A DNA stretch of 64,000 nt from Escherichia phage pinkbiff, in the sequence record MN850603.1; one strand, written 5' to 3'. The notes beneath the pieces are model-generated. The model was not told the origin of the DNA, ran no database searches, and saw nothing but the letters and a program-made list of their open reading frames with translations. Every line of letters begins with the position of its first letter. Positions within the stretch are counted from its first letter, which is position 1. Positions 40,102 to 42,988 of the stretch are shown here, one piece after another. A program made the translations under genes and the position numbers.

Positions 40102-41049
40102 TTACATAGAAATTCTGTCACGAATCTCAGCAATTTTTGCATCATTCATTCGGGATTCACCTTTAATCTTAGTCCATCCCAAATATCCGCACACCCTGTT
40201 AATCACAGAGATATCGTGTGAATGACAAACCTCACATTCTTCAACATCAGCCTTTGGTCTGTTACCACAATGTTCACAGATTGCTAAGTCAAAGTTAAGT
40301 CCCTGATAGAAACCTTTCAACATCCCTCTTGTAATACAACTCTTAAGTGCTGATAAGTTTTCTGGGTTAGCCACTCTTACATACTGGATTCTGCCGCCTC
40401 TACAGATATGGAAGAAGGGTTCTTCTAAGTCCTGCTTCTCAAATGGTGTAATATCTGCTGCAACATTCATATGGAAACTGTTTGTAAAGTATTCCTTGTC
40501 AGAAACGCCTTTGATAACGCCAAACATATCTCTGAACTGTTTTAGCTGAGTTCCACAAAGTGATTCTGCTGGAGTGCCATAGACTGCATATAAGAAGCCA
40601 TCTTCATTTTTAAACTCTTCAGTCTTCATGTTGATATATTCCAGAACATCATATGCAAAACTACAGCTTCCAACTTCATGAAGTCGTTTACCTTCAGCAA
40701 GAACAGATAGCTCATCAAGCGCAGTAACCCCAAAAGAAGCTGTGAAGGACTTCACGATATCCCAGCCAACCTTGTCAGTAGGTTTCTTATTCCCTTTGTA
40801 CAGACCACCTTGTGTGAACGCAAGAGGGTTAGAACTTGCTGGCATATTAGCAATCATTTCGTAACGTTTCTTGTGGAAGCTGCGAATCATTTCTAGGTAC
40901 TTATCAAGCTCTTTCCAGAAATCTAAGCCATTCTCTTTAGAATACTGGTAAATCATTGGTAAGTTCAAAGATACAGCACCAATGTTAGCACGACCTACAT
41001 AAAACTCTTCACCATATTCGTTATGGTATGGTGATAAAAATGCTCTACA
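40102..41049 (-). CDS. nrdD: anaerobic ribonucleotide reductase (class III), exon 2 / C-terminal part
   Basis: Glycyl-radical motif R-V-C-G-Y and C-terminal Cys cluster (C-E-H-C-G ... C-E-V-C); frame is open upstream of the track start to 41049, reading C-R-A-F-L-S-P-Y ... G-R-A-N-I-G-A-V-S-L-N-L-P, which continues the protein that ends at 41792. Confidence 0.75.
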   Translation of the reverse strand, partial: CRAFLSPYHNEYGEEFYVGRANIGAVSLNLPMIYQYSKENGLDFWKELDKYLEMIRSFHKKRYEMIANMPASSNPLAFTQGGLYKGNKKPTDKVGWDIVKSFTASFGVTALDELSVLAEGKRLHEVGSCSFAYDVLEYINMKTEEFKNEDGFLYAVYGTPAESLCGTQLKQFRDMFGVIKGVSDKEYFTNSFHMNVAADITPFEKQDLEEPFFHICRGGRIQYVRVANPENLSALKSCITRGMLKGFYQGLNFDLAICEHCGNRPKADVEECEVCHSHDISVINRVCGYLGWTKIKGESRMNDAKIAEIRDRISM

Positions 41050-41791
41050 CTTATTGTTCAGGTAAGTTCGCTAAGCTTACCCCGCTTTATTCAAGCTGCT
41101 TACTGTCGCCAGTAAGTCCAGACTATATCTTCTACTTATTTCTAAGTAGCGTACCATTTCGAGTCGCTTGACCCTACACCGCTACATTCATCACGGTTAG
41201 TCGTTCGGCATTTAGATGTATTCAAACTCATATTCGAAGTTATTATGCTCTTTTACACCCTTCAATATTGAAGAGATGGTCTTGCGATTGTATCCAAGTA
41301 TATTGGATAACTCTCGTATTGACTTAGTAACAATAACTTCCTTTGTCACTTTGTGTGTGGCTTTCACGGCATATGAACGCTTGTGGAACTTGTAACATCC
41401 ATTCTCATAACCTTCTTTAGCATTCTCAGAATGAGTACCCCATTCTAAGTTAGATACGTGGTTATTTAGTTTGTTATCGTCCTTATGTTTTACAATTGGA
41501 AGATTGTTCGGGTTAGGTACATATTTCTCAGCAACTAACCTGTGGACATACATGTCACGATTCTTCTTACCGTAAAACCTCACTTTCATATACCCAGTGT
41601 TGGATTTCCACTGCGTAAGCTCTACACCATTTTCCCTAAAGACTTTTCCATCTTCAGTGACGTGATAGTTTGGCATGTAAGACTCCTATGTTGTATAGTT
41701 TCTTACATCGTACATCATTTAGCACAGGATTGTCTACATCTGTAGAGTTTCCCTGTTTAGGCACGTTTTAGATGAGCTATAGAGCTTGTTA
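41050..41791 (-). mobile_element. putative group I intron interrupting nrdD, carrying an HNH homing-endonuclease ORF
   Basis: 742 nt between the two nrdD reading frames; upstream exon ends in T (...ATGGGT) followed immediately by a stop codon; segment ends in G before exon 2; ORF-free structured flanks of 112 and 160 nt around the HNH ORF. Confidence 0.6.
41212..41676 (-). CDS. HNH homing endonuclease (intron-encoded), 154 aa
   Basis: H-x-D-D-N-K-L-N-N-x-x-S-N-L-E-W ... H-S-E-N HNH motif; lies between the two halves of nrdD. Confidence 0.75.
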   Translation of the reverse strand: MPNYHVTEDGKVFRENGVELTQWKSNTGYMKVRFYGKKNRDMYVHRLVAEKYVPNPNNLPIVKHKDDNKLNNHVSNLEWGTHSENAKEGYENGCYKFHKRSYAVKATHKVTKEVIVTKSIRELSNILGYNRKTISSILKGVKEHNNFEYEFEYI

Positions 41792-42988
41792 ACCCATCGG
41801 GGAAATTACCTTGCCAGAACGCTCAAAAGCCTCTGCTACAGCACCATGACCAGATACACTTAAGAAATCTGGATACATAGCTTTAGAGCAACACTCAATA
41901 GCTTTTTCAAACAACCTTGCTTGGCATACATCAAGCTTATGTCTCGTTTCTTCATAGATATACACAAGTTTAGGGAACACAACAGGTTTTTTGCTTTTTC
42001 CTTGCCCGTTCATCCTTACGTTAAGGATTGTATTGGCAATCATAAACTGAAGACGGTTATCTTCATTGTGCATATCTGGTTCCAACAGACCAAATGTCAG
42101 AGTAGTAAATGCAAAATCACCGCGACTGCAAGGAACAGTGTTAAGTTTCATTTCAAGAGATTGGAAACCTTGTGTTAACTCATTCTGTAATTGCTCCATT
42201 ACGTAATTATAGTGTTGCTCTTTAGGGATTCCGTACTCTTCAGCTTTCTCTGAGTGGTACACTAAAGACTTCTTAGCATACGGTACAAGTACCTTATCAA
42301 TCTCTGCTAAAGTAAAGCCACCAAATTGCTGTGCAGTTGCTGAAAGAACTACATCACCAATAACCTGTAAGGCTGACAGCACAGACTTCGGTTCACAGTA
42401 TTCAATGCCAGACATTTCAAAGCCACCTTTCAGCACTTTACCAATGTCAAACAGGCAACAGTTGATACCACCAAAAATTAGGTCTCTTAAATCATGGATA
42501 TAGATAAACCCTTTTTCAATGGCTTCAAGTTCCTCTGGTGTTAAATGGTACTGTTTAAAGATTTCTTTAGTCAGGTAACCACGAATAATTGAACCTTTTG
42601 TAGAAATTAAACTGCTGTCAAAATTAGCATTCTCTCTGTCACCTAAGAAGAGTGTATCTCTGGTCTTCTGGTAAAGCTCATCCCAATTTTGAGCAACTTC
42701 TTTACGGTAATTTCTATATGTTGAGTAAGACTCATAAATCTCGTGATTGACTTCTGCCAAAGCCCCTTCAACAATACTGTGAATATCATTTACAGAAACT
42801 AGCAAATTATTCTGCTTAGTGGACTTTACCAGAATCCTCATAAATGCTGACTCAAGAGCTTGGGTAACATCTGGTGGAAGCTCTTTATAACCAACCCTGT
42901 TAGCTGACTTTGTGACTGCTGCTAAAACTTTTTTGATATCAGGTTCTTCGAGTGAGCCATTCTTTTTAATAATCTGTACTTTGTTCAT
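41792..42988 (-). CDS. nrdD: anaerobic ribonucleotide reductase (class III), exon 1 / N-terminal part
   Basis: About 399 aa; with exon 2 gives about 714 aa, the size of a class III RNR; reading frame ends ...K-V-I-S-P-M-G then stop. Confidence 0.75.

Follow-up and report, generated by a model that had tools for sequence, protein, structure and literature searches.

A probable mobile group I intron with an HNH endonuclease ORF in the class III ribonucleotide reductase gene nrdD of Escherichia phage pinkbiff

The nrdD gene of Escherichia phage pinkbiff is very probably interrupted by a mobile group I intron of 742 nt that belongs to the IA2 type and resembles the td intron of phage T4. Our analysis covered 64,000 nt of the phage genome (record MN850603.1; hereafter the window) and supports both an intron and the splice junctions that a preliminary description of this DNA, made from the letters alone, had proposed: the intron can pair with both exons (P1 and P10), its IA2 core covaries, ORF-less sister introns pass the Rfam threshold, the core is homologous to that of td, and the insertion is present in some related phages and absent from others. 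Splicing of the nrdD transcript is what these sequence features predict. The element is already known, as the record of phage Meda and the accompanying announcement treat it as an intron. A literature search for structural or experimental studies of this nrdD intron returned passing mentions only.

Layout of the interrupted gene

All features described here lie on the minus strand. Exon 1 (41792-42988; 399 codons) encodes the ATP-cone and the N-terminal half of the class III ribonucleotide reductase (RNR) barrel; its ORF, counted with the stop codon, spans 41789-42988, and its C terminus reads ...GKVISPMG followed by TAA. The intron (41050-41791) starts with this UAA, an in-frame stop immediately past the 5′ splice site, and its terminal G is 41050. 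Exon 2 (40102-41049; 315 codons plus the stop codon at 40102-40104) is read from 41049 as CRAFLSPYHNEYGEEFYVGRANIGAVSLNLP...RVCGYLG. The ORF list and translation reproduced to the base the two reading frames in which the preliminary description had placed nrdD, and its total of about 714 aa in unlike frames was also correct: the halves sum to 399 + 315 = 714 aa and the 742-nt spacer equals 3 x 247 + 1, so the exon frames differ. The junction bases that it had remarked on can be read directly, with the final T of exon 1 (GGT) directly followed by TAA and a G as the last base of the spacer (AAG|TGT).

The two halves together encode one complete enzyme. Exon 1 matches positions 1-250 of the Pfam NRDD profile in addition to the ATP-cone, and exon 2 matches positions 264-560 and the Gly_radical domain. 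When joined, as the preliminary description had recommended, the 714-aa protein aligned with T4 NrdD (1h78) colinearly and without gaps (E 2.2e-78) through vSPMGCRSFLS, an alignment that spans the junction SPMG|CRAFLS; the spliced product also aligned to 9d3x. The insertion separates the Gly codon from the Cys codon in the finger-loop motif SPMG|C, and the first residue of exon 2 is the finger-loop radical cysteine, equivalent to T4 C290 (a number derived from our own translation of T4 nrdD; a literature search for a paper naming Cys290 found none). Exon 2 further encodes the GRxN motif, the Zn-ribbon cysteines and the RVCGY glycyl-radical motif. Its earliest in-frame start (ATG, GTG or TTG) is codon 28, which leaves 27 codons without one, and the radical cysteine and GRxN motif are therefore encoded in the spliced message only. 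The features that identify a class III NrdD (an ATP-cone, a barrel with the finger-loop cysteine, a Zn-ribbon and a glycyl-radical motif in one polypeptide) are found together solely in the spliced product, and the frame MG|CR..LS..GRxNxG is kept in four intron-bearing lineages.

Splice-site pairings and ribozyme core

The pairing table places P1 and the internal guide sequence at 41771-41798. Exon bases GAUGGGU (41792-41798) pair with intron bases GCUCAUC (41771-41777) over 7 bp, the final pair being the U·G at the splice site. P1 carries compensatory changes among aligned homologues and is retained, with its U·G pair, in 8/9 of them, the exception being T4 td, the P1 of which is out of register in the alignment used (A2). 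The P10 guide GCUCUAUA (41778-41785) adjoins the P1 guide and pairs at 8/8 positions with UGUAGAGC, the first 8 nt of exon 2 (41042-41049). In the same-site intron of Vibrio phage F89, exon 2 begins with the unlike sequence UGCCGAUC and the guide GAUUGGCA matches it, so that P10 co-varies with the exon; the intron-less allele of phage garuso, UGCAGAGC, has one mismatch to the window's guide. P10 was tabulated by script for same-site introns only and was left out of pair counting since introns from different genes have exons that cannot be aligned with one another. The 3′ terminus of the intron reads ...AAUAAG, with the terminal guanosine present.

Every core helix from P3 to P8 was located in the window's intron. 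The 5′ core (41722-41765), placed by Rfam, covariation, a sister fold and the pairing table, comprises the 5′ strand of P3 (41760-41765) followed by J3/4 UAAA, P4 (41751-41755 with 41725-41729), the P5 hairpin (41742-41746 with 41733-41737) and the 5′ strand of P6 (41722-41723), which pairs with 41208-41209. P6a follows, with its 5′ strand at 41711-41716 and its 3′ strand UAC AUC at 41215-41220. The 3′ core (41050-41209), placed by Rfam, identity to td and pair counts, holds the P7 5′ strand GACUA (41198-41202), P7.1 (ACCG/CGGU; 41194-41197 with 41178-41181), P7.2 (GGGUC/GACUC; 41170-41174 with 41161-41165), the P3 3′ strand (41150-41155), P8 (41143-41149 with 41132-41138) and J8/7 with the P7 3′ strand (AAGAUAUAGUC; 41121-41131). 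Beyond these lie P9 (41110-41116 with 41099-41105, closed by a GCGA loop), P9.1 (41093-41096 with 41084-41087) and P9.2 (41076-41081 with 41061-41066). Placement of P7.1 and P7.2 between P7 and the 3′ strand of P3, together with homology to T4 introns, marks the element as IA2.

Covariation across nine homologous introns supports this structure. Paired bases occupied 96.9% of cells, compared with 35-41% in slid-partner controls, a percentage that is inflated because the alignment consists of author-trimmed constructs and the structure was taken partly from the window sequence; the slide controls and the number of pairs with compensatory changes on both sides (39/67) are unaffected. The covariation score of 0.489 (vs 0.05-0.08) was reached by 0/500 shuffles. 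P7.1 carries compensatory changes, P7.2 is largely invariant, and AAGAUAUAGUC and the P7 5′ strand GACUA are invariant across the aligned set. An earlier alignment (A1) had put P6a and the P1 and P2 of td out of register; in the rebuilt A2, P6a was trimmed to 4 bp and td P2 was removed. An unconstrained minimum-free-energy (MFE) fold of a 316-nt sister intron recovered P3, P4, P5, P6, P6a, P7.1, P7.2, P8, P9 and P9.2.

The Rfam scan of the spacer proposed in the preliminary description gave a split outcome. In a permissive scan both halves of the core matched RF00028 (Intron_gpI), the 3′ core at 33.1 bits (E 2e-6) and the other piece at 15.6 bits, but each score falls below the gathering threshold of 50, which we attribute to interruption of P6a by the 465-nt ORF. 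ORF-less sister introns scored 60.4, 56.2 and 55.1 bits, and the core of one of these threshold-passing sisters is the same as the window's except at one base; the ORF-bearing T4 td intron, included as a positive control, also scored below threshold. At the gathering threshold a scan of the whole window detected nothing but tRNAs, which in light of these scores we did not count against an intron, and a permissive scan of the whole window detected no second group I intron. An ORF-less DNA-polymerase intron has been reported in phages Meda and Mushroom, and a counterpart would thus be either absent from pinkbiff or located beyond the window.

Two T4 introns provide the closest comparisons. The 3′ core is ~71% identical to that of the td intron over 160 nt (blastn), and the two introns share a P3-P9 layout with P7.1 and P7.2, identical P7 strands (GACUA/UAGUC), a UAAAU/UAAAU internal loop in P6 and a J8/7 of almost the same sequence. 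The td intron self-splices. It also starts with UAA and carries its ORF in the P6a loop, but it resides in the thymidylate synthase gene rather than nrdD, has a P2 hairpin that the window's intron lacks, and encodes a GIY-YIG endonuclease (I-TevI) rather than an HNH protein. The T4 nrdD (sunY) intron, which encodes I-TevII, occupies the same host gene and belongs to the same family; its 5′ segment is very like that of the window's intron (AGCUCAUGUAAAAUCUGCCUAAA vs AGCUCAUCUAAAACGUGCCUAAA), and P2 is absent from both. However, it is inserted at a different site, between AYE and YEVNT (~residue 180), with the T4 Cys290 site uninterrupted, and its GIY-YIG ORF lies in P9.1 rather than P6a. We rejected it as an orthologue of the window's intron on account of the different insertion site.

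The ORF in the P6a loop

The HNH endonuclease that the preliminary description had noticed within the insertion is encoded by an ORF of 154 aa (41212-41676) in the P6a loop. Its product matches Pfam HNH_3 at 41.2 bits (cutoff 24.8) and, more weakly, NUMOD1, which corresponds to a C-terminal helix-turn-helix, and it matches phrog_59 with E 1.8e-43. The sole solved structure with a significant match is I-HmuI (PDB 1u3e), encoded in the DNA polymerase intron of Bacillus phage SPO1, and this match is end to end (E 5.6e-9; residues 3-153 vs 12-170), retaining the HNH residues HKD..NK.NN...NL.W. Each protein has a C-terminal helix-turn-helix and is encoded in a phage group I intron, but identity is ~25-30% by eye, and the host genes and target sequences differ. 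I-HmuI nicks one strand, as the product of the window's ORF may also do. We describe this product as a putative I-HmuI-like HNH homing endonuclease with a predicted activity and target. Homologous ORFs are present in same-site introns of 'Campylobacter phage A142' (49% identity) and Vibrio phage F89 (40%).

The last two sense codons of the ORF, UAC AUC (41215-41220), double as the P6a 3′ strand. After the P6a 5′ strand, within 41675-41716, an 8-bp hairpin (41701-41708 with 41675-41682) carries the Shine-Dalgarno sequence AGGAG (41683-41687) in the region of its loop, and the A and U of the start codon for the HNH protein are base-paired in its stem. Folding of the 316-nt sister intron gave this hairpin as well. 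Its MFE of -9.8 kcal/mol (z = -1.6) is not significantly lower than that of shuffled sequence. By analogy to the regulation of I-TevI, the hairpin may control translation of the ORF. A promoter scan found 6 sites where 8.8 were expected, nothing above chance, and we gave no weight to the candidate TAGACA-18-TACGAT upstream of the ORF.

Distribution among phages and alternative readings

Comparison with relatives places the insertion at a single point. In garuso and Felix O1, which lack the intron, nrdD runs straight through ...CCGATGGGT|TGCAGAGC... with GGT directly joined to TGC, and seven intron-bearing phages carry 742, 316 or 292 nt at that exact point in nrdD. The same insertion occurs in >90 related phage records, which, together with the contiguity of the intron-less alleles, indicates that it is not a product of chance. 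Phages with exons that differ by 6-25% have introns of 97-100% identity. A mismatch map of the window shows a change of affinity ~115 nt upstream of the intron, from garuso-like sequence (-520 to -115) to sequence resembling Mushroom and nataliec (from -115 to beyond +228), and the 16 differences from garuso cluster at -88 to +89. The apparent upstream co-conversion tract and the 5′ part of the intron span 41703-41906. A mosaic of this kind in the flanking exons is consistent with homing and co-conversion.

Homologous introns also occupy this site in more distant phages. Those of the Vequintavirus-like record A142, Justusliebigvirus phage cardinal and Vibrio phage F89 g2 all lie between the ..MG and CR.. 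of nrdD and have ribozymes homologous to the window's, but their cores are only ~72-73% identical and the sequences of P8, P9.1, P9.2 and P10 differ; the cardinal intron, at 280 nt, has no ORF. A broader proposal is that one family of td-like introns with I-HmuI-like endonucleases uses the Gly|Cys site at the finger-loop tip as a common landing pad and moves between unrelated phage genera (Felixounavirus, Vequintavirus, Justusliebigvirus and that of a Vibrio phage), and that splicing may be conditional on translation or growth state. We consider this unlikely as a whole; if conditional splicing were nonetheless real, the intron would be a switch for production of the class III reductase rather than a neutral parasite.

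Under the reading that we favour, a functional mobile intron, nrdD would be transcribed as a single pre-mRNA and ribosomes on exon 1 would halt at the intron's initial UAA. The intron would fold through P3-P9 while its guide binds the 3′-terminal 7 nt of exon 1 (P1, with the U·G pair) and the initial 8 nt of exon 2 (P10). A guanosine cofactor would then attack after U41792 and the freed exon 1 would attack after the terminal G at 41050, yielding a ligated mRNA with the predicted junction ...CCGAUGGGU|UGUAGAGCA... (GGU|UGU at the joint) and, from it, an intact 714-aa class III reductase. In mixed infections, the ORF product would cut or nick an intron-less nrdD near the insertion site, and repair off the intron-bearing genome would copy the intron with roughly 100 bp of exon on each side.

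A genuine intron could instead have decayed, splicing poorly and leaving nrdD inactivated and dispensable. Phages grown aerobically in the laboratory can do without class III RNR, so that a copy unable to splice could last for some time, and decay of the element does occur: sister phages have lost the endonuclease ORF on at least two occasions, giving the 292- and 316-nt forms. The pattern of sequence change makes loss of splicing very unlikely, however. Every copy examined has two intact exons in register. Between copies, ribozyme cores retain 99-100% identity, whereas divergence is 0-4% in the ORF and reaches ~25% in distal exon segments; substitutions in Felix-type cores are confined to loops, joining regions or changes from G-C to G·U. 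All catalytic-core segments match those of td.

Annotation of these phages mostly follows another model, in which a free-standing HNH gene split nrdD into two separately translated genes with products that reassemble. In Aeromonas phage Aeh1, an HNH-family gene likewise lies between two RNR gene halves (nrdA-a/mobE/nrdA-b), and these genes in pieces, a case ascribed to Friedrich and colleagues in 2007, reportedly encode NrdA-a and NrdA-b products that reassemble into an active enzyme. Most GenBank records give two nrdD CDSs and a homing endonuclease, the Mushroom announcement, citing Aeh1, describes the homing endonuclease as free-standing, and Bardina et al. (2016) describe a split gene. Aeh1 has no intron and its halves are translated separately; in the window, the ORF is flanked by a complete, covarying group I core and exon 2 is startless, and the features of an Aeh1-type arrangement were not found. 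The annotated second CDS, starting at a TTG at 40968, would lose the radical cysteine and the GRxN motif, which also disfavours the separate expression of the halves that the preliminary description had named as evidence against an intron. The reading frame of exon 1 terminates at the first codon of the intron, precisely where intron-less alleles read on, and the 292- and 316-nt forms keep the whole ribozyme and still interrupt nrdD, which would be pointless for a split gene and is expected of an intron. We regard separate translation as highly improbable.

A protein-level or translational route deserves practically no credence and is ruled out from the sequence itself: the exon halves are in different frames, as ribosomal frameshifting or translational bypass might entail, but a stop codon directly follows exon 1 and, to our knowledge, 742 nt far exceeds any known bypass; inteins are known in other phage RNR genes, but the HNH ORF has its own frame, Shine-Dalgarno sequence and start codon, and lacks intein splicing motifs, with HNH_3 and NUMOD1 as its only Pfam matches.

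With the intron reading preferred, the main value of the locus lies in annotation, as the sequence supports one spliced gene for a complete enzyme. Understanding of group I introns is unchanged by it; the locus adds another case of a phage intron inserted at the catalytic codon that its host gene conserves most strongly. One genus nevertheless offers a series through the life cycle of a homing endonuclease, from empty sites and introns with intact ORFs to two independent ORF deletions and co-conversion tracts. Among database entries, roughly 90-110 Felixounavirus records carry the element.

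The nrdD locus and the exon junction

The window belongs to a myovirus of the Felix O1 type, genus Felixounavirus, and the 3.1 kb around nrdD, which encodes a class III ribonucleotide reductase, share 99.0% identity with Escherichia phage vB_Eco_Tribble and 98.5% with vB_EcoM_Alf5. Its 24 densely clustered tRNA genes (2799–7968, minus strand; Rfam tRNA 33–65 bits) are typical for Felix O1-like genomes; one, at 5836–5923, has a long variable arm and a sub-threshold tRNA-Sec match. ORF, translation and Pfam analyses bore out the preliminary description of nrdD as two out-of-frame halves separated by 742 nt (41050–41791, minus strand) that contain an HNH ORF. 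The first-half ORF (41789–42988, minus strand; 399 codons) ends in GKVISPMG followed by TAA and covers the ATP-cone and Pfam NRDD positions 1–250; the second-half frame, which opens with CRAFLSPYHNEYGEEFYVGRANIGAVSLNLP and runs on the same strand from 41049 down to a stop at 40102–40104, covers NRDD positions 264–560 and the glycyl-radical domain. The spacer ORF (41212–41676, minus strand) encodes 154 aa matching HNH_3 (41.2 bits, cutoff 24.8) and, more weakly, NUMOD1. Terminator-like hairpins just 5′ of the nrdD start (43013–43028) and just 3′ of its stop (40058–40093) match annotated phage Meda terminators and suggest that nrdD and its intron largely form their own transcription unit.

Alignment of the joined protein had been proposed as a check. 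Joining 41792 to 41049 yields a predicted 714-aa protein that aligned without gaps across vSPMGCRSFLS to both T4 NrdD (PDB 1h78, E = 2.2e-78) and a 734-aa bacterial NrdD (9d3x). [quoted passage not shown] Garuso and Felix O1, which lack the intron, read uninterrupted from CCGATGGGT directly into TGCAGAGC, and in Meda, Mushroom and nataliec, the intron-bearing relatives that were compared, 742 nt sit at exactly this point. At the sequence level, the intron-less relatives confirm the predicted junction to the base.

Ribozyme structure

The 742-nt insertion is a group I intron. The finding is real, and splice-site rules, a full core, covariation and td homology support the interpretation in the preliminary description, including its observation that the upstream exon ends in T followed by a stop and the spacer in G. 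In the transcript, exon 1 ends in U, and the intron starts with an in-frame UAA and ends in G. Intron positions 41771–41777 (GCUCAUC) pair with the final seven exon bases (GAUGGGU) to form P1, closing in a U·G wobble, and the adjoining positions 41778–41785 (GCUCUAUA) form P10 by pairing at eight of eight positions with the start of exon 2 (UGUAGAGC); a single internal guide that serves both helices is the classical arrangement. All core helices were found with verified coordinates: P3, P4, P5, P6, P6a, P7, P7.1, P7.2, P8, P9 (with a GCGA loop), P9.1 and P9.2. An unconstrained minimum-free-energy fold of a 316-nt ORF-less sister intron recovered P3, P4, P5, P6, P6a, P7.1, P7.2, P8, P9 and P9.2.

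We counted pairs of the structure read from the window in an alignment of nine homologous introns, trimmed of ORFs and variable loop interiors, with partners slid by 1–3 columns and 500 shuffles as controls. Standard pairs occupied 96.9% of cells compared with 35–41% after sliding, the 96.9% being biased upwards because the sequences were chosen and trimmed here and the structure was partly derived from the window. The compensatory counts and slide controls are free of this bias; 39 of 67 pairs changed on both sides (5–11 when slid). The covariation score was 0.489 (0.05–0.08 when slid). No shuffle (0/500) reached any observed value. Most compensatory changes lay in P3, P6a, P7.1, P8, P9, P9.1 and P9.2; P7 and P6 were invariant.

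Against the Rfam group I model (RF00028), the window matched in two pieces of 33.1 bits (E = 2e-6) and 15.6 bits, below the gathering score of 50 bits. ORF-less sister introns scored 60.4, 56.2 and 55.1 bits, one of them differing by a single base from the window's ORF-deleted core, and the T4 td intron, with its ORF in place at the same position, also fell below threshold. We thus attribute the low score to the 465-nt insertion in P6a and not to a core defect. By the td result, scans at the gathering threshold will systematically overlook phage group I introns that carry an ORF.

The two halves might instead be a split gene, with nrdD expressed as two separate genes. A complete, covarying ribozyme flanks the ORF on both sides, however, and versions lacking the ORF still break up nrdD. 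Exon 2 also has no in-frame ATG, GTG or TTG until codon 28, so the annotated second CDS (TTG at 40968) would have neither the radical cysteine nor the GRxN motif; MG/CR..LS..GRxNxG stays in frame across the junction in four independent intron-bearing lineages. A decayed intron that no longer splices is unlikely, because the few substitutions in Felix-type cores either lie in loops and joining regions or leave a G·U pair.

Related introns and the endonuclease

Across 160 nt, the 3′ 165 nt of the intron share around 71% identity with the T4 td intron's 3′ domain; they also resemble introns of Vibrio, Aeromonas, Pseudomonas phiKZ-like, rV5-like and phi92-like phages and the annotated terminase intron of phage LL12. 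Together with P7.1 and P7.2, this homology assigns the intron to the T4 td/nrdD/nrdB family (IA2). The intron has no P2; the T4 nrdD intron likewise lacks P2 and has a closely similar 5′ segment. The T4 intron, however, interrupts its gene between AYE and YEVNT, around 110 codons further upstream, and holds I-TevII, a GIY-YIG enzyme, in P9.1. On the grounds of its insertion site we rejected it as an orthologue.

Homologous introns occupy the same nrdD Gly/Cys site in three other lineages: 'Campylobacter phage A142', a Vequintavirus-like record (762 nt), Justusliebigvirus phage cardinal (280 nt, without an ORF) and Vibrio phage F89 g2 (819 nt). In the last, the exon 2 start UGCCGAUC and the guide GAUUGGCA pair at eight of eight positions, a compensatory change that independently supports the predicted P10 and 3′ splice site. 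F89 g2 nrdD holds two HNH-containing insertions, of which the second (1875–2693) is the same-site homologue and the first (209–1367) has a 310-aa HNH ORF and, at 1331, a J8/7 motif of group I character (AGAGATAGTC). MG065662 and MG065664 ('Campylobacter phage A142/A132') and GU169904 ('Staphylococcus phage SA1') carry Vequintavirus- or Felixounavirus-like sequence despite their host names, with A132 and SA1 nrdD 94–97% identical to the window; these records look mislabelled or contaminated.

The ORF product matched I-HmuI, the nicking HNH enzyme encoded by the DNA-polymerase intron of SPO1, end to end (PDB 1u3e, E = 5.6e-9), sharing HKDxNKxNN...NLxW and the C-terminal helix-turn-helix, and belongs to PHROG 59 (E = 1.8e-43). 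The same-site ORFs of A142 and Vibrio are homologous (49% and 40% identity). The ORF lies in the P6a loop, and its final two sense codons form the P6a 3′ strand. An 8-bp hairpin takes up half of its start codon and holds the Shine–Dalgarno sequence in the loop; hairpin stability showed no significant excess over shuffled sequence. I-TevI in td is under translational control, of which this hairpin may be reminiscent.

Distribution, mosaicism and earlier records

That phage ribonucleotide reductase genes can hold T4-type introns with homing endonucleases has been textbook knowledge since the 1980s, and this element is an ordinary member of that well-known kind. Earlier work has handled it as an intron: in the Meda GenBank record the two exons make up one joined CDS, and the Meda announcement reported that the reductase is interrupted by the HNH endonuclease and that the polymerase gene has "another intron" (PMC6486253). 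An ORF-less intron of the DNA polymerase gene, seen as a 383-bp gap, is described in both the Meda and the Mushroom paper, and the SPJ41 paper counts two introns among predicted ncRNAs, leaving out their location. Most database records mis-annotate the element, and a literature search found no paper analysing its structure, site or mobility. Scanning the entire 64 kb with Rfam at permissive settings brought up no further group I match, so this phage lacks the polymerase intron or its polymerase gene lies outside the window.

The element was present in roughly one-third of 319 related records, around 60 of which had the full 742-nt form. Others had 316-nt or 292-nt forms that have lost the ORF, through deletions with two distinct pairs of end points, and kept every ribozyme helix. 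In Mushroom-type phages, a further gene, for a NUMOD3 homing endonuclease, lies between nrdD and nrdG (3564–4064 in the Mushroom locus); at the corresponding ~39700–40100 the window lacks it and has small membrane-protein-like ORFs, which explains the BLAST matches that come in two pieces.

In the phages that carry it, the intron is much better conserved than the surrounding gene; nataliec is 100% identical to the window in the intron and 89–75% identical in exon 1 segments. Mismatch mapping against Mushroom, Meda and nataliec revealed around 25% divergence from −520 to −115 relative to the intron (41906–42311 in exon 1), then near-identity from −115 across the intron to beyond +228. Compared with intron-less garuso, the window was around 98% identical from −520 to −115, followed by 16 differences clustered between −88 and +89. 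By these comparisons, at least two deeply diverged alleles of the 41906–42311 part of nrdD circulate and recombine in the genus. The mosaic is the pattern expected of endonuclease-driven homing and co-conversion, in which a garuso-like nrdD would have received the intron and around 100 bp of exon per side from a Mushroom-like donor. One co-converted base, changing the Cys codon from TGC to TGT, also restores full P10 pairing.
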